Assembly: GCA_964016885.1 (NCBI GenBank)
Contig: OZ024742.1
Location: 194,246,001 to 194,310,000 of the forward strand
Reading direction: 5' to 3'
DNA: 64,000 nt
Origin: Eledone cirrhosa
Taxonomy: Eukaryota
Numbering within the stretch: position 1 is the first letter of the stretch; each line of letters opens with the position of its first letter. The translations under genes and the position numbers were made by a program. Positions 1,790 to 59,205 of this stretch are shown one piece after another. The notes below the pieces were generated by a model that had not been told where the DNA came from, ran no database searches, and was given only the letters and a program-made list of their open reading frames with translations.

Positions 1790-3100
<1,311 letters not shown>

Positions 3101-5312: not shown

Positions 5313-5719
5313 AAAATGGAACGGGAACAAAACAGAGAGGCAGTACGAACAAAGGTTTATTAGTTTCACGCTCTTGAGAGTGGGTGGGGGGACGTTTTGG
5401 CCACGAGCTCGTCTTCAGGCGAAAAGTATGTGGAAAGAGACTTCCAAGGGTGTGTTGGGGAGTGGGGGAGAGACATTTAGAAAAAAGGGGGTGAGAAGAA
5501 ACGGTGGAAGGGGTACAAATGAAAATAAATATATAAAAATAATAAAAATAAAAATAAACATGAAGATAAACAAGTGGTGGAAGGGTGTGGGCGTGTAGGG
5601 GTGGTGGCGGGAGGAGTGGGGAGAGGGAGCGGAGAGGGCTGAAGGTGGTGTGTGTGTGTAGCTGTACGTGTGTGTGTGTAGGTGTACGTATGTGATACAT
5701 ACATACATATGTACGTATA

Positions 5720-6590
5720 TGGGAAGTGATCTATTTGATATGTCTCATATGAAATCATACAGCCCATTTTCCACACAATACAATATAGTTAGCACCCCGA
5801 ACGTTTATATTAGGAATATACTCAGATATTTCCTAATATTTGTTGAGCGAGTTGGAATTTGGCCGGAGTATCACTATTAGCTTTCTCCGTTCATGTATTT
5901 ATATATTTACTCTTGGTGCAACAGATATGAACTTTCATGATATGAGGTATGACTCTCTTTGTTTATTTTTATATGAATATTGATTGTTTGTTCTTGTATC
6001 TACTTCTGTTATTTTGCCCGAGAAAATATCTATTTGTGTCATTAAGTGAAGCGCACATATGGTTATTTTTTCATATCCAATTGAGTTCTAAGCACGTGGC
6101 TTGAATTCTTATCAGAATTCAGCGACCTGCGCATGTATTGTTTTTGGAGGTAATCTCCTTCCTTCTATTTTCGAGACAGTGTGAGATTTTCTTTAGAACT
6201 GCTGTACTAACAACCTAGCAACTCCATCAAGCAATGATGGTGATTATCGCTAAATATTGATGTTGATTTGGTTAGCAATATTAATATTATTGGGCACCCA
6301 CTGAAGAATTATAAGAGCCCACTTGTATAAGTATCTGTTAATCTTATACAAGCTTCTACATAAATTGATGTATTTTCACCCAACTTATAGAAATCTTATA
6401 GTGAAACGAGACGTCTGGGAAGTGATATATTTGATATATCTCATATGAAATGATACAGCCAATTATCCACACAATACAATATAGTTAGCACCCCGAACGT
6501 TTAATTAGGAATATACTCAGATATTTCCTAATGTTTGTTGAGTGAGTTGGAATTTGGCCGGAGTATCGCTATTAGCTTTCTCCGTTTATG

Positions 6591-6598
<8 letters not shown>
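5720..6598 (+). mobile_element. 696-nt non-coding hammerhead element with ~180-nt terminal redundancy (retrozyme or mini-Penelope-like)
   Basis: Direct repeat tgggaagtgat...ctttctccgtt at 5720 and 6416. Hammerhead at 6297-6419 cleaves at the repeat start. No ORF; 3' end runs into (TA)n. Confidence 0.85.
6297..6419 (+). ncRNA. type I hammerhead ribozyme with large multibranched stem II; predicted cleavage at 6415/6416
   Basis: Stem I CCCA/TGGG, core CTGAAGA, stem II ATTATAAGA/TCTTATAGT, GAAA, stem III ACG-aga-CGT, GUC site. Inner hairpins CTTGTATAAG/CTTATACAAG and TACAT/ATGTA. Confidence 0.9.
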
Positions 6599-6647
<49 letters not shown>

Positions 6648-6652
6648 ATATA

Positions 6653-7409
6653 TATATGAAAAAAGTTTGTCCTTCATCAGTGATCTTCCAACTATCATAG
6701 GCATTTCATCGCTTTAAAGACCATATACCTCCGGTTGGTGCGAGCAACGACTAAAAAAAGTCGTTGGGACACGTAAATAAAGGGGACGCGAGGGTAAACA
6801 AACAAAATGGTGATGCACTGCTGCTACACCGTCTTTTTCGTTCTATGTATCTTTACCCTTTCTAGCAGTCTCTCTCTCTGTTAGCCTCTTCCTCACCCTT
6901 CACTCACTCATTCTCTGTCACTACCTCTCCTCCTCCTCTTTCTTCTCGTTTGATCTGTGAGTAATTCTTTTCTCTCACATTCTCAGCCAAGCTGGTCGGA
7001 ATTTTTTCTCTCTCGTCTACGATTTCACAGAACTTATGTTTACCGAATTCGCAGACCAGACCCCTTCTTACTCCCGTTAGACCTGTGCGAAATTCCTTCC
7101 TTGCTCACATTTCAACCAGGTTTGATGGTCTTTATTCTTTCGTTCACGATTTCACCGAACTTAAATTCATAGAAATCTGGGACTTGTCTCCTTCTTCCTC
7201 ACTTTCTGTTGCTTCACCATTTTGTTTGTTTACCCTCGCGTCCCCTTTATTTACGTGTCCCAACGACTTTTTTTAGCCGTTGCTCGCACCAACCGGAGGT
7301 ATATGGTCTTTAAAGCGATGAAATGCCTATGATAGTTGGAAGATCACTGATGAAGGACAAACTTTTTTCATATGTAACCCATTTGCAACTCCGCAGCGCC
7401 CTTATTATC

Positions 7410-16006: not shown

Positions 16007-16504
16007 TTAATTGTAAGTTGTGATGTTGCTGTTCCACTCATATTTTCTATTTAATTTTGGTTTTAATTCTTTTATGCTTACTGCCTCTGTAATTTGCCTA
16101 AACATTGCGTCTTTCTTGTGTGTGGATTCTATTTTTATTTCTATGCTCTCTAATTTACCCCTGTGTTCTATCTTAGCATGTTGGTAGAGCACAGATGATT
16201 CTTTACTATCTTGGAGGTCTCGCCAGTGTTCATTTATTCGTTCCCCTATACTACGAGCTGTCTCACCTATGTACACTATATTTTTGTTTCTACATTGTCC
16301 CTCAGTACATCTTATGCTATATACTACATTTCTAGTTTTACAGTTAATATGGGGGCTTATTTTACAGGTTATACATTTCTTATCTATACATGAGGGTCTT
16401 TGGAACGGGTATGTCTTGCTAATAAGTGTTTTTACGGAGGTACCAGGTCTTTCTACTATCTTAATATTGAGATTATGTTTCTTTAGGGCCCTTCTAAATT
16501 TCAC
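16007..16504 (-). CDS. Penelope-type GIY-YIG endonuclease domain (fragment)
   Basis: CxxxxCxxC linker, VVY..YIG, R..EH, E..I..PKLN motifs. Confidence 0.85.
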   Translation of the reverse strand: MKFRRALKKHNLNIKIVERPGTSVKTLISKTYPFQRPSCIDKKCITCKISPHINCKTRNVVYSIRCTEGQCRNKNIVYIGETARSIGERINEHWRDLQDSKESSVLYQHAKIEHRGKLESIEIKIESTHKKDAMFRQITEAVSIKELKPKLNRKYEWNSNITTYN

Positions 16505-20527: not shown

Positions 20528-21494
20528 TCAGGTTATAAATTGGGTGTTGAGTTCTAGTCTATTATTGATAGGTGGTTGTGTTTTATCTATAATTAGTGCT
20601 TCCTTAATTCTAAGATTGCCGAGGTTTCTTTCCTTAGTTTCTATCCTAACTGTTATGGTTTTGTCGGTGTTTTTGCATTTAACTAGGTGTTTCTTAAATG
20701 AGGAAGCGTTAGTATTGAGGTGTTCTTTTATTCTTATGTGGAATGGTCTTGTGGTGCTACCTACGTAGAAGTTGTTGCATTTGTCACACTCTAGTCTGTA
20801 TACGACGTAAGCCTGGTGGCATAGGTCTGTGTCGTTGATGGGGCAGTTGGCTAGTCTGCAGCAGTTGTCATGTCTGGTGGAGTGTCTTTTAGCTAACTGT
20901 CCGCGCAGAGAAGGACCTGAGTGGGCCAGTTGGATATCTAGTCCTTCTCGTCTGATGGCTCTGCGGATGGCTGTTGTTGTTTCTTCACTGAAGTGTGGGA
21001 GCTTCAGGAAGCAAGTGTTAGTGCCTTGGGTGTGGTGTCCTCTGTTCTTTCTGGCACGGTTTGTGGTGGATGTCGTGTATCCGTTCAGTTTGAGTACTTC
21101 CAGGAAATGTGTGGAGTGTGTGTCTCGGTCTCTGGCGTCGGTGCATTTGTTCCGGATACGTGCCAGTTCGTTCCTTATGTATCCGAACTTGGCACCAAGT
21201 GGGAGGGCCGATCTGAAATGTACGAACAGGTCCCTGCTGACGGCTTTTTTATAGAAGCAGGTGTGGATGTTGCCTTCCTCTGTTACCCTGAGTTGGAAGT
21301 CCAGTAGGGATAGGGATCCGCGGTCATCGGGGTGTTCCATGCTGAAATTTATACTGGCGTCCATGCTGGAGAATGTTGTGTACATTTTATCCGCCTCCCC
21401 ACGGGATGATGTGAGGATGCGTATGTCATCTACATATCGGGTGAAGAAGGCATGGGAATGGCAGGTGTTGAGGGCTCGGCATTCTAGCTGGTTC

Positions 21495-21496
<2 letters not shown>
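20528..21496 (-). CDS. Penelope-like RT (YVDD to thumb) plus GIY-YIG endonuclease, C-terminal 322 aa
   Basis: FTRYVDD, SLSLLDF, YKK..HFRSALP, VVYRLECDKC..YVGSTTR..RIKEH, KEALII..PPINNR. Confidence 0.9.
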
Positions 21497-21576
<80 letters not shown>

Positions 21577-21903
21577 TATAAATACATATAGATTAAATAT
21601 AAGTTTACCGATGTGTAAGTGTTCGGTATAAGCTTGGCCATACAACCACTCACATAATTGTAGTTCTGGTACCAGATACCGATTTTCTTCGGCGCATCAA
21701 GTTATATTTGTTGTTGACCAAGAGAGTTAGCTGACTGTTATGCGCTGTGATTGTCTTTTTTTAATTGCCTCAAATACCAACGCATGAAGATATTTACGTA
21801 CGATAAATGTCCATTGGTTTCAACAATATGTCTCAGTCGTTCTACAACTGGAACAGATTGCCCAGGAAAGAAATGTGACAGTTACTGATCACTCCTCAGA
21901 CAA

Positions 21904-25702: not shown

Positions 25703-27189
25703 ATTAATTATAGATTATTATTATTACGCTTTTTCCATTTCTAATTACCTCATGTACTTTCTCCTCCGTTATATATATATATATTGTATGCCCTTTGTGT
25801 TTGTGTAGCCTCTGCACACCCTCTGCACCCTACTATCGACGCCACCCCATCTATGGTTCAGCTAACCACTCGACTCCCGGGAATGAATATGACCGCAGCT
25901 AGTAAACAAGGACCCACACCCCACCCTCCCGCACCAAAATTAGACTTATCGTCCCCTACTTTTGCTCTTTACTCTCTTTACTCTTTGTCCTTAATGTTTG
26001 GTTGGTAGAGTCCATAACACCAATCAAACCCCTTTTATAGCTCTGACGAATCCTACGGTTACGTAAGGAAGAAACATTGTAAGCCAATAAAAATCTTTTG
26101 ATGTTGTAGACGCTCTTGTGTTCTTTATCATATATAAATATATGTATGTGTGTGTTTATGTGTGATAAATCCATACCTGTATCTACACCGACAAGAGTGA
26201 ACAGAAACTGCGATATGTTCACCAATCCTAATGAGGTTAATATAAACAGTATCAATGATGTTAAACTTCAACACTTCCTATCTGACTTAGCCTTTGGCCC
26301 CCTCATGTCTTAGCATCAATAATGAACATTATGTACAACTCAACAATAGGTACCTCGAGTTTCCTGAAGGGGTATCGACATTAAATAGCATCCTCTCCCG
26401 ACAATATATGGAGAAACACACTGGGTATAGATTATATCACGGAATATTTTTAATCCCATTCTGCCATCAACGTTTTCAAAAGGGCAAACATGTCCCTTGC
26501 AGTGAATAACTGCCCGATCTCATTCATTTCTCAGATCATTAATATATATGAGCGCCCGATGGGATAGGGAATGCTCAATCCCTCAGAAGTAAAAATCATC
26601 TGATTTCCAGCCAGCTTGGTTCCAGCGATGGTAGGGACAGATTAACGCAGCCTGTGGATCACGTGGATAGCACCCTAAGGGTTTTGGGAGAGGGATCCAC
26701 ATCTGATGTTACTTAACTGTTTTCAGTAAGTTCAATACACTCATAAACAACATAGTTGAGACTGCCCACAATATCTCCTCCAAGATTCTGCAACTGTCCG
26801 GTTAAGATATATTCATACCATTATCTATCTCTACGCTACATTTACTCTGTCTCCCCTTATACACTGTTGCGCCTGTAGCCTCCCCCTATTTCACCTCAAC
26901 TGAACCTTTTTTTTTATTTCGTACGAAACTACATCAAGACAGAAAATATCTCATAAAAGGCAAAAGGGTGCTGATCAAATTACACTAAGAATTTCCGGAT
27001 ACACCTTCAGGCCCGCATATTTTCTCCGGAGAGCATAATTATTTGCAGGAGTGAGTCGTAGTATATGAAAAACAACAGACGTGGGAAGCATGATTTGAAA
27101 CAGTTCGCCAGGTCATGCTATACTGTTAGACATCGTCTGGGCCATTAAATTATAAAAGTAAAATATATATATTTTTTATTTTATTTATG

Positions 27190-43607: not shown

Positions 43608-45836
<2,229 letters not shown>

Positions 45837-47270: not shown

Positions 47271-50200
47271 TTGAGTCTCAGTCATTGATGTTATTTAACT
47301 GGAAAGTTTGTTGAAATGAATATCAAGCCCCTACATGCAGCCTCAGATATTCAGGACGTATCGGAGGTTCTTGCTGTTCGCAGCAAGCATGCCTTTTGAA
47401 GTGTTCCAAAAAGCGGAGCTGGACTAATCTTCTTTAACCATCCTTGGAAACTCTTTGAGATAGTACCTAGAGCGCCTATGACAATCGGGACGACCTTGAA
47501 TTCATGGCAATTCCAAATCCTTTTTTACTCCCACTTTAAATACTGGTATCGGTTAATTTTCTCCCTCTCCTTTTCTTGCACTCTCGTGTCGAATGGGCAG
47601 GCTACATCTACAATCAGGCACGATCCTTTTTCCTTGTCCAAAACCACCAGGTCTGGGCTATTGTCTTCTAATTTCTTGTCCGTCTGTATCCTAAAATCCC
47701 ATAGCAGCTTCACCTAATCGTTTTCTATCACCGACTCTGGCTTTTGCTCATACCACTTCTCAGAGTGTGGTAAATTGTTTACTTTGCATAGGTGCCAGTG
47801 GATCACCCTGCCCATCATGTCATGTCAGCCTTTATAGTGAGTCTGGGCAAGGTGTTTACACTCGGATACAATGCGAGCCACAATCTCCTCTCTCTCTCCA
47901 CAGATCCTACAGAGTGGACTAGCCTCCTCCTTGTAAATATGGTGTTTCACCCACTTCGTCTATCAACATCACTCCTCTTGTGGAACATGTAGATAGTCAT
48001 TAGCTTCCTAATCTTCTTATCCATTTCTTTCTCTTCAGCAACATTCCATCTCAGAATTCCCGCACTGTATCTAATAATAGACACAGCTCGGGAATTTACT
48101 GCACTTGTGGCATTCCTACTATTTAGATGTGATTTTAATACGCTCCTTACTCTACTAATGCACTCAGATCATATCAATTCCTTTATTTTTTTTTGTTCTT
48201 GATGTCATCAGCCTCCAGAACAGCTAAATATTTGTATGCTTCTATAGTGTCAATTTCCTTTATCATCTCACCTGTTGGATTCCGTTGCTACTGCTTAATT
48301 TACCCCTCTTCATCACTTGGACTCCACAATTATTAATACCAAATTGCATACATATATCATTGCTGAAAATACGGACAGTGTCAACAAGCACATCCAACTC
48401 CTTCTCACTCTTGCCAAAGAGTTTAAGATCGTCCATGAAGAGGAGGTGATTGATGGTAAGCTCTCCTTTTACCAACTTGCATCCTGCTCTCACATTTCGC
48501 AGTATAATGGTCAGGGGTATCAGGGCAAGGACAAACAACAGAGGGGACAAACTATCTCCCTGGAAGATACCTCTCTTGATCTTCACGCCTCCCAAGGATT
48601 ATCCACCCGATGTAAACTCTGTTTCCCAGGACTTCATATTTTTGCTCAACAACTGTCTGATGTTATCTGCCACCTTGAAGATCTCTAGGCTTTTGGTTAT
48701 CCAAGAATGAGGTACATTGTCGAATGCCTTTTTGTAGTCTATCCATCCCATGGCAAGACCAGTTTGTCTCCTCTTGCAATTCCTCATTACCATCTTATCA
48801 ATAAGTAACTGGTCCTTTGAACCACGGGACTTCTTTCGGCATCCTTTCTGTTCGTCCGGTAACAAGTTGTTTGTGTGGAGGTGATGGTAAATTTCTTCAG
48901 GCACAATGCTTCTCAACAGTTTCCATATTACGGACAGACATGTGATAGGTCTATAGTTGGTAATATCATTACCCTTGATTCGGTATTTCATTACCAGAAC
49001 TGTGGTACCTTTTGTCAACCACTCTGGAACCTCACCTGACATCAAGCAGTCATTGAACATTGTTGTCAATTTCGAGTGGAGGGATGTTATATTTTTAATC
49101 CAATACTCCTGCACACCATCTTGGCCTGGTGATATCTAGTTGGTTACTTTTTTTGGCCTGCCCCTTAAGATTTTCAACTGTGATACTCAAATCAGTTTGT
49201 TGGTGTGCCTGTTCACTAATCTCCTTTTGTACTGTCTCAATCCACACTGCCTGATCATTATGTTTAACATCCTGTTCCCATATTCCTCTCCAGAATGTCT
49301 TAGTCTGTTCCGCCTCAGGGATCAAGTCGTTGCCTCTTTCTTTCTCCTCAAGCTGTCCAAACAACATCTTGTTGTTGTCAAACTACATGTTTTCTAGTGT
49401 ACCATTCAGTAGGGACTCAAGCTTTACAATGTCATTTCTCATTTCCCTGATTTGACCATTCAGTCGTTTCTTCCACCAAGGTTCTGATCTTTGTTGTTTG
49501 TTGTTTCCTCTCGCTTTTATGCCCAGTAATTTCCTCACCGCGTTTGCTGTTGCTTTGAGGATATTGTTGCATTGGTGAAGGTTCCTCGTCTCAAGGTATG
49601 GGATGACTTTGTTTACCTTAGCTGTTGTTTCTTTTAACTTTTTCCTGTCTACAAATCTTAAGTTCATAGGTTTCCCACTATCATTGTTCATTTCATCTAC
49701 CACTAAGTTTAGGATATCAACCAAATCTTGTCCTAGCCCGTCAGCATTCATTTCTTCAGTGGCCGTATATTTGTTCCAGGTATTATTTATTTCAGCATTC
49801 AGATCATTGTCTGCTTTGGGTGCTTCCTCCGTTCTCTCAACCTCTTCACCTTCATTTCCCACTGGCTCGTTTGCCTGGCATACTCCACTCTCCATTTCCA
49901 ACCTAATCTCTCTGCTCAGTTCCTTCAGTTCCAGCTCGCTTATCCATCCATTAGTTCTTATTACACGAGCCTGTCCGGCCAATTTTTGTTCATCTAATTT
50001 AAATAGACCAAACTCGTTCCAGATGTTATGCATCCGTTTCCTATAGCCTTTTTCATTGGGTTTACTCTTCAGGTAACATTGCATAACAGTTCTATTCAAT
50101 TCTTTCGTCCAGTTGGTTCTGGTCCCTTTCCTTTCTTCCTACCAGCAGTATTTGGATGACAATCAGGTCCCTGCTGCTGGTCCAGGGAGCACCTGCTGGG

Positions 50201-52971: not shown

Positions 52972-54630
52972 GTTCTTTGAGTCTCAGTCATTGATGTTAG
53001 TTAATTGGAAAGTTTGTTGAAATGAATATCAAGCCACTACGTGCAGCCTCAGATATTCAGGACCTATCGGAGGGTTCTTGCTGTTCCCTGCAAGCATGCC
53101 TTTTGAAGCGTTCCAAAAAGCGTGAAGAGGCCAATTTTCTTTAGCCATCGCTGGAAACTTTTTTGAGATAGTACCTAGTGCGCCTATGACAATCGGGACC
53201 ACTTTGACTTCATGGCAGTTCCAAATTCTTTTTAGCTCCCACTTTAAGTCCTGGTATCGATTAATTTTCTCCCTCTCCTTCTATTGCACTCTCGTGTCGA
53301 ATGGGCAGGCCACATCCACAATCAGGCACGATCTTTTTTCTTTGTCCAAAACCACCAGGTCAGGTCTATTGTGTTCCAGTTTCTTGTCCGTCTGTATCCT
53401 AAAATCCACAGCACCTTCAGCTGATCTTTTTCTATCACCGACTCTGGATTATGCTCATACCACTTCTAAGAATGTGGTCAATTGTTTACTTTACATAGGT
53501 GCCAGTGGATCACCCTGCCCATGGCATCATGTCTACAGTCCTTATAGTGAGCCTGGGCTAGGTGTTTACACTCGGATACAATGTGAGCCACAGTCTCCTC
53601 TCTCCACAAATCATGCACAGTGGGCTAGCCTCCTCCTTGTAAATATGGTGTTTCAACCACTTCGTTTTGAGGGCCTGCTCTTGAGCAGCCATTAACATTC
53701 CTTCTGTAGCCTTTTTAAGGTCTCCTCTTTTCAACCAGTTCCATGTCTGTGGATCTCTGAATTTAGTTTTCTCAAAGAAGGTACTATGAAGGGATTTTTC
53801 CTGAAGGCTGCTCTTTCTCCTTGTTGTTATTTCCTCCTTGAACATCCCCTGGTCTATTGTCCTCTCCTTCAGTACAGTTCTGAGCATTGGCTCCTTACAA
53901 TCAGTCACGTATTTGTGTAGGTTGTTTTTCTCCATCTGATCACACTCCTCTATGCTGATAAGACCTCTTCCACCTTCAGCTCTCCTTAAGTAGAGTCTAT
54001 CGACATCACTCCTCTTGTGCAACATGTTGTAGATAGTCAATAGCTTCCTACTCTTCCTATCCATTTCTTTTTGTTCAGCAACATTCCATCTCAGAATTCC
54101 CGCACTGTACCTAATAATAGACACAGCTCGGGAATTTACTGCACGTATGGCATTCCTACTGTTCAGATGTGACTTTAATACGCTCCTTACTCTCCGAATG
54201 TATTCAGTTCTTATCAATTCCTTCATTTTTTTGTTCTTGATGTCATCAGCCTCCAGAACAGCTAAATACTTGTATCCTTCTTCAGTGTCAATTTCCTATA
54301 TCATCTCACTTGTTGGTACCTGGATTCCGTTGCTTCTGCTCAATTTACCCCTCTTCATCACAAGGAATCCACACTTACTAATACCAAATTGCATACATAT
54401 ATCTTTACTGAAAATACGGACAGTGTCAACAAGCACATCCAACTCCTTCTCACTCTTCCCGAAGAGCTTAAGATCGTCCATGAAGAGGAGGTGATTGATG
54501 GTAAGCTCTCCCTTTTCCAACTTGTATCTTGCTCTCACTTTTCGCAGTATAATGGTCAGGGCATCAGGGCAAGGACAAACAACAGAGCGGAGAGACTATC
54601 TCCCTGGAAGATACCTCTCTTGATCTTTAC
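52972..54630 (-). mobile_element. R4/Dong-type copy B, 5'-truncated, (TTA)n on both sides
   Basis: ORF fragments 54296-54538 and 53558-54226; same 3' UTR as copies A and C. Confidence 0.9.
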
Positions 54631-54661: not shown

Positions 54662-57600
54662 ATTCCTTGAATCTCAGTCATTGATGTTGGTTAACTGGAA
54701 AGTCCGTTGGATTGAATATCAAGCCACTACCTGCAGCCTCAGATATTCAGGACGTATCGGAGGGTTCTTGCTGTTCCAAGCAAGCATGCCTTTTGGAGCG
54801 TTCCAAAAAGCGTGAAGGGGCCGATTTTCTTTAACCATCCCTGGAAACCTTTGGAGATAGTCCCCAGTGCGCCTATGACAATCGGGATCACTTTGACTTC
54901 ATGGCAGTTCCAAATCCTTTTCACCTCCCACTTTAGATCCTGGTATCGGTTAATTTTCTCCCTCTCCTCCTCTTGCACTCTCGTGTCGAACGGGCAGGCC
55001 ACATCCACAATCAGGCACGATCTTTTTTCTTTGTCCACAACCACCAGGTCAGGTCTATTGTGTTCCAGTTTTTTGTCCGTCTGTATCCTAAAATCCCACA
55101 GCACCTTCACCTGACTGTTCTCCATCACCGCCTCTGGCCTATGCTCATACCATTTCTCAGAATGTGGTAGATTGTTTACTTTGCACAGGTGCCAGTGGAT
55201 CACCCTGCCCATCACATCGTGTCTCCAGCCCTTATAGTGGGTCTGGGCTAGGTGTTTACACTCGGACACAATGTGAGCCACAGTCTCCTCTCTCTCTCCA
55301 CAGATCCTGCACAGTGGGCTAGCCTCCTCCTTGTAGATATGGTGCTTCAACCACTTCGTTTTGAGGGCCTGCTCCTGCGCAGCCATTAGCATTCCTTCTG
55401 TAGCCTTTTTGAGGTCTCCTCTTCTCAACCAGTTCCATGTCTGTGGATCTCTAAATTCAGTTTTCTCAAAGAAGGTACTATGAAGGGATTTTCCCTTAAG
55501 GCTGCTCTTCCTCCTTGATGTTATTTCCTCCTTGGATATCCCCTGGCCTACTGTCCCCTCCTTCAGTACAGCTCTGAGCATTGGCTCCTTACTATAGGTC
55601 ACGTATTTGTATAGGTTGTTTTTCTCCATCTGAACACAGTCCTCTATGCTGATAAGACCTCTTCCACCCTCAGATCTCCTTAGGTAGAGTCTATCGACAT
55701 CACTCCTCTTGTGGAACATGTTGTAGATAGTGAATAGCTTCCTAGTCTTCCTATCCATTTCTTTTTGTTCAGCAACATTCCATCTCAGAATTCCCGCACT
55801 GTACCTAATAATAGACACAGCTCGGGAATTTACTGCGCTTATGGCATTTCTGCTGTTCAGATGTGACTTCAATACGCTCCTTACTCTCCGAATGTATTCA
55901 GTTCTTAACAATTCCTTCATTTTTTTGTTCTTTATGCCATCAGCCTCCAGAACGCCCAAATACTTGTATCCTTCCTCAGAGTCAATTTCCTTTATCATCT
56001 CACCTGTTGGTATCTGGATCCCGTTACTTCTGCTCAACCTACCCCTCTTCATCACAATGACTCCACATTTACCAATACCAAACTGCATACATATATCACT
56101 GCTGAAAATACGGACAGTGTCAACAAGCACATCCAACTCCTTCTCACTTTTCCCGAAGAGCTTAAGATCGTCCATGAAGAGGAGGTGATTGATGGTAAGC
56201 TCTCCCCTTCCCAACTTGTATCCTGCTCTCACTTTTCGCAGCATAATGGTCAAGGGCATCAGGGCAAGGACAAACAACAGAGGGGACAGGCTATCTCCCT
56301 GGAAGATACCTCTCTTGATCTTCACGCTTCCCAAGGATACTCCAGTTGATGTCAACTCTGTCTCCCAGGACCCCATACTCCTGCCCAGCAACTGTCTGAT
56401 GTTATCTGCCACCCTGAAGACCTCCAGGGTTTTGGTGATCCAGGAATGAGGCACCATGTCAAATGCCTTTCTGTAGTCTATCCATCCCATGGCAAGATCA
56501 GTGTGTCTCCTCCTGCAATTCCCCATTACCATCTTATCAATAAGCAACTGGTCCTTTGTACCACGTGACTTCTTTCGGCATCCTTTCTGTTCGTCCGGTA
56601 ACAAGTTGTTTGTGTGGAGGTGATGGTAGATTTCCTCAGACACAATGCTCGTCAACAGTTTCCACATTACGGGCAGACATGTGATAGGTCTATAGTTGGT
56701 AACATCATTACCCTTGATTCGGTCTTTCATTATCAGAACTGTGGTACCTTTTGTCAACCACTCTGGCACCTCACCCGACACCAAGCAGTCATTGAACATG
56801 GCCGTCAGCTTCGGGTGGAGGGATGTTAAATGTTTAATCCAATACCCCTGCACACCATCTGGGCCTGGTGATTTCCAGTTGGTTAGTTTTTTGGCTTGCC
56901 CCTTAAGAGTTTCAACTGTGATACTCAAATCAGTCTGTTGTTGTGCCTTCTCACCGATCTCCCTCTGTACTGTCTCAATCCACCCTGCCTGGGCATTGTG
57001 TCTAACATCCTGCTCCCATATTCCTCTCCAGAATGTTTTAGCTTGTTCCGCCCCAGGGATCAAGTCGTTGCCTCTTTCTTTCCCCTCAAGCTGTCCAAAC
57101 AGCATCTTCTAGTTGTTGTCGAACATGCGGTTCTGTTTATACTGACTGACTCTGTTCTCGTATCGCCTGATTTTGGCACTCTTTGCTACAATGCGTTGCT
57201 TCAATTCCTCTATGATAATATTTAGCTTTTTACTCCTAGTTTTGTATTTTATTTCCAGTCTATTTTTAGTGCCTATGTTTTTTAGTGTCCCATTCAGTAG
57301 TGACTCAAGCTTTCCTATGTCATTTCTCATTTCCCCGATTTGCCCACTCAGTCGCTTCTTCCACCACGGCTCTGCTCTTTCTTGTCTGTTGTTTCCTCTC
57401 GCTTTTATACCAAGTAGTTTCCTCACCGTATTTGCTGTTGCTTTGAGGATATTGTTGCACTGGTCAAGACTCCTCGCCTCAAGGTATGGGATGACTTTGT
57501 TTACCTTAGCTGTTGTTTCTTTTAACTTTTTCCTGTCTACAAATCTTAGGTTCATAGGTCTCCCACTATCATTGTTCAATTCATCTACCACTAGATTTAG

Positions 57601-59205
57601 GATGTCAACCGAATCTTGTCCTAGCCCGTCAGCATTCATCTCCTCAGTGGCCGTATCTCTGTTCCAGGTATTATTTATCTCAGTATTCAGATCATTGTCT
57701 GCTTCGGGTGGTTCCTCCGTTCTCAGGACCTCCTCACCTTCATTTCCCACCGGCTCGCTTGTCTGGCATACTACACCCGCCATCTCCAAGCCATTCTCTC
57801 TGCTCAGTTCCTCCAGTTCCAGCTCGCTTATCCACCCATTAGTTCTTATTACCCGAGCCTGCCCGGCCAATTTTTGTTCATCTAATTTAAATAAACCAAT
57901 CTCGTTCCAGATGTTATGCATCCGTCTCCTGTAGCCCCTCTCCTTGGGGTTACTTTTCAGGTAGCATTGCATAACAGTTCTATTCAATTCTTTCGTCCAG
58001 TTGGTTCTGGCCCCTTTCCTTCTTCTTCTTCCTCCAACATCAGCAGTATTTGGTTGACAGTCAGGTTCCTGCTGCTGAGCCAGGGGGCACCTGTTGGGTG
58101 AGAGTCTATCACATGACGTTCTAGTCTCCATTTCACCGTTATTCGAACTGTTTATGTTCGATATTTAAACACTCTTATTGAGGATTGGCGAATTTATGTT
58201 TACATAGCCATCTGTGGATCCGCCATCCCACTTGGCCCTTGTGTGGCATTATCACCACGCTGTATACGAACACACATAAACAAACAAACACACGGGCAGA
58301 AAGGGCCCCAAAAATGAATAAGCATAAGTTTCATTGTAATGTAGTATTCGAATGTCTGACTTAGTTTTTGTTTTTTAAGTTTTACTTTTTCCCCCTTCTT
58401 CTCTGTCCGTCCGCCTGCTTCTCTCTTCATTCTTATTTTCTTTACGTTTTTGGGGTTTCTTTTTTTGTTTTTGTTTTTCTCTGTTTGTTTTTCTCGTTTT
58501 TTGCTGTTGTTGCTGTACTGCTTTGGTTTTGTTGTTTGTTTTTTCTTTTTTCTTTTGAGTCTATCTATATATTTTGATGCCTTCCTCTTTGTTAGTAGTA
58601 GGGATTCTATAATGTGGAAGTAGTAGCAGCCAGCAGGGAGAAGTGGGAGATTGGCGGCGTTGGCGATACTGAGACAGTGGTGGTGGTGATGTCGATACCG
58701 AGGCAGTGGTGGCGGTGATGCGACCGTATTACTGTAGTGATGGTGCAGTAGCGGTAGCAGCAGCAGTGAAGGAGTCAAGGGGTGGTGGCGGCGGTGATGG
58801 GATAGTGGTGGTAATGATGGCCGTAGTGAGCGGTGGCGGTGAAGGTGAAAATGCTGTTGTGTTTAGTGTACACAGATGATGGGGTGGGTGGTGTATCTAG
58901 TTTCTGGTGTTGGTGAGTTTAGCTGTCCTATATAGTGTAGCCAGAGGAGAGGAGGGGGGGGGGTTCTTCTTCTTCCATTTATAGCCATTTTTTTTTTTGG
59001 ATATACAGTGTACAATACAAAGTTGAATATTTGAATATTTGAGCCTTATAACAATATATTTTGGGTCCGAATTTTTTGGGGCTCAAGCCGGGTGCTTTAC
59101 GTAGCATTTGTACTAAGAGTTGTTATTTCACAAATGATTTAAATATGTTAAAAATTCAAGGAGCGATTTCATGACCTCCGTCACCTCGTGCGTCTTCTTC
59201 CCATA

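Follow-up and report, generated by a model that had tools for sequence, protein, structure and literature searches.

The window (the whole 64-kb stretch of DNA that was analyzed) contains a non-coding repeat made up of one full 696-nt unit and a partial second lap of about 185 nt, inserted between TATA and a (TA)n run (Table 1). The 9-mer that follows the predicted cut of its hammerhead ribozyme, TGGGAAGTG, matches the + strand of the window at 5720 and 6416 only, a spacing of 696 nt, and the sequence at 5720–5909 aligned to that at 6416–6604 with 94.7% identity over 189 nt (10 mismatches and one gap). At its 3′ end, the element grades into (TA)n at about 6598–6601. When the unit was read in six frames across the junction, the longest stop-free stretch was 61 aa and the longest from ATG 51 aa. 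These results agree with a first-pass annotation of this DNA, which had described a 696-nt non-coding unit, a complete type I hammerhead cut at the site given in Table 1, and an element end ∼180 nt past the ribozyme in (TA)n.

Table 1. Features of the element, in positions of the window
Feature	Position	Strand	Remarks
One full unit, predicted cut to predicted cut	5720..6415	+	696 nt, no ORF
Partial second lap, unit positions 1 to about 185	6416..6600	+	3′ end is the fixed end of the family and the putative start of reverse transcription
(TA)n target run receiving the 3′ end of the element	6587..6657	.	
5′ junction	5716..5720	.	TATA abuts the first base past the predicted cut; without clear target-site duplication
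Type I hammerhead	6297..6419	+	predicted cut 6415/6416, C17 at 6415
Stem I	6297–6300 with 6416–6419	+	CCCA with UGGG
Hammerhead core	6301–6307; 6403–6406	+	CUGAAGA; GAAA
Stem III	6406–6408/6412–6414	+	3 bp
Extended stem II	6308..6402	+	95 nt, branched; 9-bp helix 6308–6316/6394–6402
Possible pseudoknot or competing helix	6291..6321	+	6291–6295 pairs with 6317–6321

The window copy itself has one hammerhead, which was the sole match in a canonical-core scan of the 64 kb. Its stem II helix closes a 77-nt insert, inside which two or three hairpins are predicted. Support for the proposed fold is comparative and comes from two subfamilies that are ∼79% identical: a stem II pair changes in a compensatory manner, being A-U in 69 and G-C in 58 of the 133 segments that cover both columns, and core position N7 is variable (A in 66, T in 69), with the remaining core positions invariant. 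The additional helix at 6291–6321, possibly a pseudoknot or a competing pairing as modeled, can form in both subfamilies, with no compensatory change seen between them. Immediately 5′ of the cut, the larger subfamily has an extra CGTC, of which 3-nt or doubled versions occur in single copies. The hammerhead region folds no better than shuffled sequences (z −1.21), unconstrained folding of the region did not return the active fold, and in the window copy the active fold lies 4.5 kcal/mol above the minimum-energy fold. Rfam searches of the whole window and of 6250–6460 returned no hammerhead family, just chance miRNA matches; standard models probably miss hammerheads with long stem II inserts. 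Further minimal hammerhead-like motifs, which belong to other repeat families, lie at window positions 26043 (+), 39522 (−), 32043 (−), and 2403 (−).

In the 3.0-Gb host genome that we surveyed, which its SINEs suggest may be that of an octopus, a 27-nt word had 1,339 exact matches. The family to which the element belongs thus numbers more than 1,000 copies; these are dispersed, their 3′ ends are fixed in (TA)n, and their 5′ ends vary. As a sample, we took the first 100 word matches in position order, all on one contig, which gave 92 distinct insertions after two duplicates were dropped. The 3′ end was fixed, with 89 of the 92 insertions stopping at unit position 169–190, and a TA run was present at the 3′ end in 87 and at the 5′ end in 72. 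Insertion length ranged from 63 to 2,502 nt (median 482), the longest having three full laps; 8 of the 92 were at least 900 nt long, and some loci have head-to-tail repeats with two or more hammerheads. In the 65 insertions that reach past the cut, the upstream sequence was the end of the same unit, for up to three full laps. Such a layout is that of a retro-copied element, the synthesis of which would begin at a fixed internal site and then cross the hammerhead; the annotation's view of a non-autonomous hammerhead retroelement is supported. The commonest 5′ end in the sample lies at +6 to +13 (about 15 of 92). We rejected this pile-up around +10 as evidence of cleavage, as ends also gather near unit position 175, at a similar ATATAT site; 5′ ends near +10 are explained by ATATAT microhomology.

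Insertions of the element are often found within the (TA)n tail of another TA-targeting repeat; several of these repeats have hammerheads of their own, and nested clusters result (5′ flanks of L012, L020, L025, L047, L155, L190, L219, L246, and others). At two further loci, L244 (G000:C312) and L245 (G000:C2:78358766), the first base past the cut is joined to unit positions 573 and about 406, respectively; these joints skip the hammerhead and could be microhomology deletions or jumps from the cut end.

The annotation had predicted that 5′ ends would pile up genome-wide at the cut, and they do. Exact pattern counts at this site gave 983 read-through junctions and 57 rows with a base other than C before the cut, the latter made up of 13 read-through junctions with a mutated C17, three joins to other or internal sequence, and 41 plain starts (one of these is complex and two have a flank in common; the window copy falls outside the 41 by a variant in the anchor). 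Upstream of the cut, the truncation rate was 0.18% per nt, an average from the sample on one contig only, from which 1.9 starts would be expected; the 41 observed thus represent a ∼21-fold excess. The control positions −1, −2, and −3 had 3, 2, and 1 starts (44 rows). Similarly, a hand tally of TA-flanked starts among the matches listed (100 of 124 rows in one set and all 87 in the other) gave 37 at +1 versus at most six at any position from −1 to −20. Positions +5 to +8 are also raised (7–25), and +1 offers a 1-nt T microhomology. A 5′ end at the cut is not the rule among copies: only about 4% of passes end there, and about 96% read through. Of 35 cut-site starters examined, 33 were short (about 185 nt or less), and two, like the window copy, comprised a full lap plus 185 nt.

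Among the best 30 full-length matches, the window copy and one other alone start at the cut, so the 5′ end at a single locus could be a matter of chance. The claim that the window copy is a reverse-transcribed copy of a self-cleaved RNA therefore draws its support from the family-wide excess of 5′ ends and could not stand on one locus, given that ∼4% of passes stop at the cut and 983 junctions are read through. With the excess taken into account, the 5′ end of the window copy very likely records a cut RNA. Its template was most likely a linear RNA longer than the unit, in which the upstream hammerhead had cut and the following site was uncut or re-joined, because a cut monomer alone would give just a 185-nt copy and because the copy crossed one hammerhead site intact. 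The window copy is therefore no evidence for a circle.

A second line of evidence comes from one of the 57 rows, locus L243 (G000:C1:337,331,984 onward), where a 672-nt monomer running from the first base past the cut to C17 is flanked on both sides by the 3′ UTR of a Neptune-type Penelope-like element. The host sequence is split exactly after ACCGGTA and before AAACTT, and comparison with the intact loci L077 and L087 revealed nothing lost and nothing duplicated. The host 3′ UTR is 5′-truncated, and the entire insertion is bounded by (TA)n. The split point is where the minimal hammerhead of the host itself, with a U3-A8 core and a palindromic ACCGGT stem III, is predicted to cut; the U3-A8 variant has been described (PMC4209133, Cervera and de la Pena 2014). 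Intact copies of the host junction number 11,688, and the host family encodes a reverse transcriptase with a C-terminal GIY-YIG domain. In contigs of one other sample, the intact Neptune joint is present without the 672 nt, and the chimeric junctions of L243 were not among the matches listed from them, an absence that carries no weight; the unit family and its tandem joint, as well as the intact Neptune joint, are present in three contig sets of one sample. Insertion in the ordinary way would give an end in TA at unit position 185; because L243 instead has joints without shared homology and three coincident cut sites, it points to an event at the RNA level. The event would be either a double ligation of cyclic-phosphate and 5′-OH ends or two template jumps, and either would require that both ribozymes had cut.

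L243 is a single locus, as no further cut-to-cut chimera appeared in junction searches of 17, 26, and 3 rows or in the 100 of 171 matches listed. In two of these searches, 16 of 17 and 26 of 26 rows were point or small variants of the normal junction, and none of the 17 + 26 rows was a copy ending at the cut directly into TA. Two further chimera candidates were discarded, one being a natural Neptune variant and the other a chance match. Short duplications at the Neptune cut occurred in 2 of 100 matches listed, which is within chance by a rough estimate; they resemble the doubled sequence 5′ of the cut in the unit family.

In the Neptune families of this genome, the hammerhead is followed by 145–200 nt and then by (TA)n, the same layout as in the unit. 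Their hammerhead junctions repeatedly form inverted pairs at a constant distance of 125 nt (five pairs in the first 100 matches listed, for example at G000:C1 21363530/21363655, 25261289/25261414, and 26825270/26825395), which may reflect either folding back at a preferred point or a short derivative that is non-autonomous. The window itself contains, at 2587–3099, two 5′-truncated Neptune-type 3′ ends in inverted orientation, which have U3-A8 minimal hammerheads (cores at 2939 on + and 2789 on −) and are akin to the host family of L243; the arms end about 35 nt apart, which corresponds to the optional tail known from Penelope-like elements. Immediately following the element's (TA)n tail, at 6651–7376, is another repeat family with 167-nt inverted arms, in which a clear hammerhead was not found; a partial tandem of a similar element is present in L096. 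Coding Penelope-like fragments (reverse transcriptase/GIY-YIG) occur in the window at 20528–21592 (−), which is 94% identical to L091, and at 16007–16504 (−) and 44126–44803 (−). Long reverse transcriptase plus endonuclease-like frames of 789 and 351 aa lie at 54739–58164 (−), with fragments at 48599–50138 and 53558–54295; these frames resemble a non-LTR retrotransposon of the R4/Dong type.

To account for these observations, we propose, with good confidence, that the element belongs to a non-LTR retrozyme family that was likely copied into (TA)n by the reverse transcriptase/endonuclease of a Neptune-type Penelope-like element and the hammerhead of which likely cut part of the RNA in vivo. Transcripts longer than the unit would self-cleave only partly. 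A nicked (TA)n would then prime reverse transcription by the Neptune-type enzyme at the UA-rich site inside the RNA, some 185 nt beyond the cut, and synthesis would mostly cross uncut or re-joined junctions before stopping at random or at TA microhomology, with about 4% of passes, that of the window copy included, running off a cut 5′ end. The cut ends (5′-OH and 2′,3′-cyclic phosphate) could be joined to each other to give circles and multimers and, occasionally, to the cut RNA of another element, through an RtcB-type ligase or template jumping. As judged from the genomic copies, it is likely that the hammerhead works, and that its ends are joined, in living cells: the excess of 5′ ends at the scissile bond and the cut-to-cut monomer within the cut of another element would be in vivo records of this. 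The same counting of 5′ ends can be applied to any assembled genome with such a family. A report on an anole element, in which insertion in vitro did not depend on hammerhead cleavage and no reads began at the cut (PMC11167929), counts against this proposal.

A wider proposal, which we offer tentatively and hold to be nearly but not quite as probable as its opposite, is that hammerhead-cut RNAs from different retroelements undergo end joining in the germline. The cut would then serve as a point of recombination at the RNA level, by which a retrozyme monomer can ride on autonomous Penelope-like machinery. If this is true, such joining would also be how Penelope-like elements acquire their tandems and pseudo-LTRs, and Neptune's weak minimal hammerheads with the U3-A8 core would have in vivo activity.

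Among the alternatives, the one that survives best, which we regard as unlikely yet far from negligible, retains the element and its cleavage and dispenses with ligation and circles: the tandems and L243 would arise when reverse transcriptase, on reaching the cut 5′ end of its template, switches to the cut 3′ end of a second RNA. Two such jumps in succession explain L243 equally well, and the joints of L244 and L245, from +1 to internal unit positions, are of the kind that such jumps would leave. Further, rare variants are common to laps in 23 of 80 pairs, only modestly above the 13 of 80 for the nearest other copies, and rare variants are unevenly spread over the two laps of the window copy (23 in 679 nt versus 0 in 172 nt; p 0.006, the most extreme value among 83 copies and not significant after correction), a hint that the window copy, too, may join two molecules. 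However, the laps of an insertion match at 1,916 of 2,012 subfamily-diagnostic positions, which is what a single circular or same-locus template would give. Circles are also the form in which other animal retrozymes accumulate (PMC7229834), and RtcB is described as joining such ends before retrotransposition in U6/L1 chimeras (PMC6789731). Lap agreement and shared rare variants are compatible with circles and no proof of them.

We consider it improbable that no cut occurs in vivo and that the excess at +1 reflects reverse transcriptase stalling at the folded ribozyme. A stem III of just 3 bp and the 983 read-through junctions accord with stalling, as do reports that metazoan minimal hammerheads cleave poorly in vitro (PMC4209133) and that eight of nine Xenopus dimers were uncleaved (bioRxiv 10.64898/2026.07.22.740005). 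A stall would, however, be expected at the edge of a helix (+4 or −2) and not at the scissile bond, and starts at −1 to −3 are few. Nor would stalling explain L243, in which the cut also defines the 3′ end of the monomer and the host is interrupted where its own hammerhead is predicted to cut.

Marginally weaker still is the idea that the unit is merely part of a coding Penelope-like family, its pseudo-LTR or 3′ UTR, seen as 5′-truncated copies. Coding Penelope-like elements also show a fixed 3′ end, 5′ truncation, and partial tandems (PMC8557442), and our inspection of GIY-YIG loci covered only 40 of 10,596 candidates. Against this, the sequence upstream of the cut in the sampled copies is the end of the same unit. 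Of the 40 loci, L096 alone matched the unit; the match is a short copy nested there separately, and we rejected it as a coding parent; Penelope-like protein matches occurred in 7 of 175 5′ flanks, and none that we looked at continues the unit (in the flank of L189, the match is an insertion between unit pieces). A tblastn search of the genome's Penelope-like ORFs against 30 copies gave no significant match (best E 0.32), and the last 180 nt of the unit had no similarity to any of five Neptune tails (p 0.24–0.98), a dissimilarity that also weighs against the reading that we prefer. A coding ancestor of the unit is likely. Least probable of all is that the window copy stopped at the cut by chance, since background truncation puts about two copies at any one position and the 21-fold excess leaves about 1 in 20 of the +1 starts to background.

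The reading that we prefer, a non-LTR retrozyme family cut in vivo and copied by a Penelope-like enzyme, places the element within a known kind, in variant form. In titles and the openings of abstracts, mostly outside subscription papers, we found no report of a cephalopod retrozyme, of genomic 5′-end pile-ups at such hammerheads, or of retrozyme–Penelope chimeras joined at cut sites. The accessible main text of PMC13282606 does not contain the word ribozyme; its supplement and those of PMC7229834 and bioRxiv 10.64898/2026.07.22.740005 could list the family, and an unnamed consensus may exist in Dfam or Repbase. What sets it apart is its genomic record of probable cleavage and cross-element joining, of which we found no earlier report.

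The comparisons that follow refer to the accessible portions of the cited papers. The unit has the testable features of a non-LTR retrozyme, namely a type I hammerhead with a full core, no coding capacity, and head-to-tail repeats; for the putative self-cleavage at the predicted site, the genomic footprints are indirect. Plant LTR retrozymes have type III hammerheads in LTRs and 4-bp target-site duplications, whereas the unit has type I topology, tandem laps, and (TA)n junctions. With the animal non-LTR retrozymes (PMC7229834, Cervera and de la Pena 2020; bioRxiv 10.64898/2026.07.22.740005, Li, Clavereau, Pollet), the unit shares a non-coding AT-rich sequence with one type I hammerhead each, head-to-tail repeats, a short near-palindromic stem III, and co-occurrence with Penelope-like elements. 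The first-pass annotation had thought the element unusually long; however, published animal lengths span 51–972 bp (bioRxiv 10.64898/2026.07.22.740005), and the unit lies inside this range. It differs in that its copies are mostly dispersed and 5′-truncated with one fixed internal 3′ end in (TA)n, in that its stem II closes a 77-nt branched insert missed by Rfam models, and in that no pLTR parent was found for it; it is known here from genomic DNA alone.

Consistent with a non-autonomous Penelope-like element, the family has a fixed 3′ end, 5′ truncation, a microsatellite target, and partial tandems; an ORF with reverse transcriptase and GIY-YIG, as in autonomous Penelope-like elements, is absent from the unit. 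Neptune-clade elements and their non-autonomous derivatives (PMC8557442, Craig et al. 2021; PMC4209133) resemble it in having the hammerhead 145–200 nt from the fixed 3′ end, a microsatellite target, partial tandems, 5′ truncation, and no clear target-site duplication. In contrast to them, the unit lacks an ORF and detectable similarity to the five Neptune tails, has a canonical C3-G8 core, and does not regularly carry an inverted copy or the optional 30–40-nt tail. As with Poseidon of Anolis (PMC11167929, Frangieh et al. 2024), reverse transcription would start inside the RNA, downstream of the hammerhead, and uncut RNA would be the main template; the start in the unit is UA-rich like the target, whereas the anole start is not homologous to the cut DNA, and in the unit family cut templates appear to have left a measurable trace. 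Finally, the U6/LINE-1 chimeras made by RtcB (PMC6789731, Moldovan et al. 2019) offer a parallel to L243, in that a cyclic-phosphate end would have been joined to a 5′-OH as RNA and then retrotransposed; in L243, however, both ends would be ribozyme-derived, the monomer would have been joined on either side, and a Penelope-like element is the partner.
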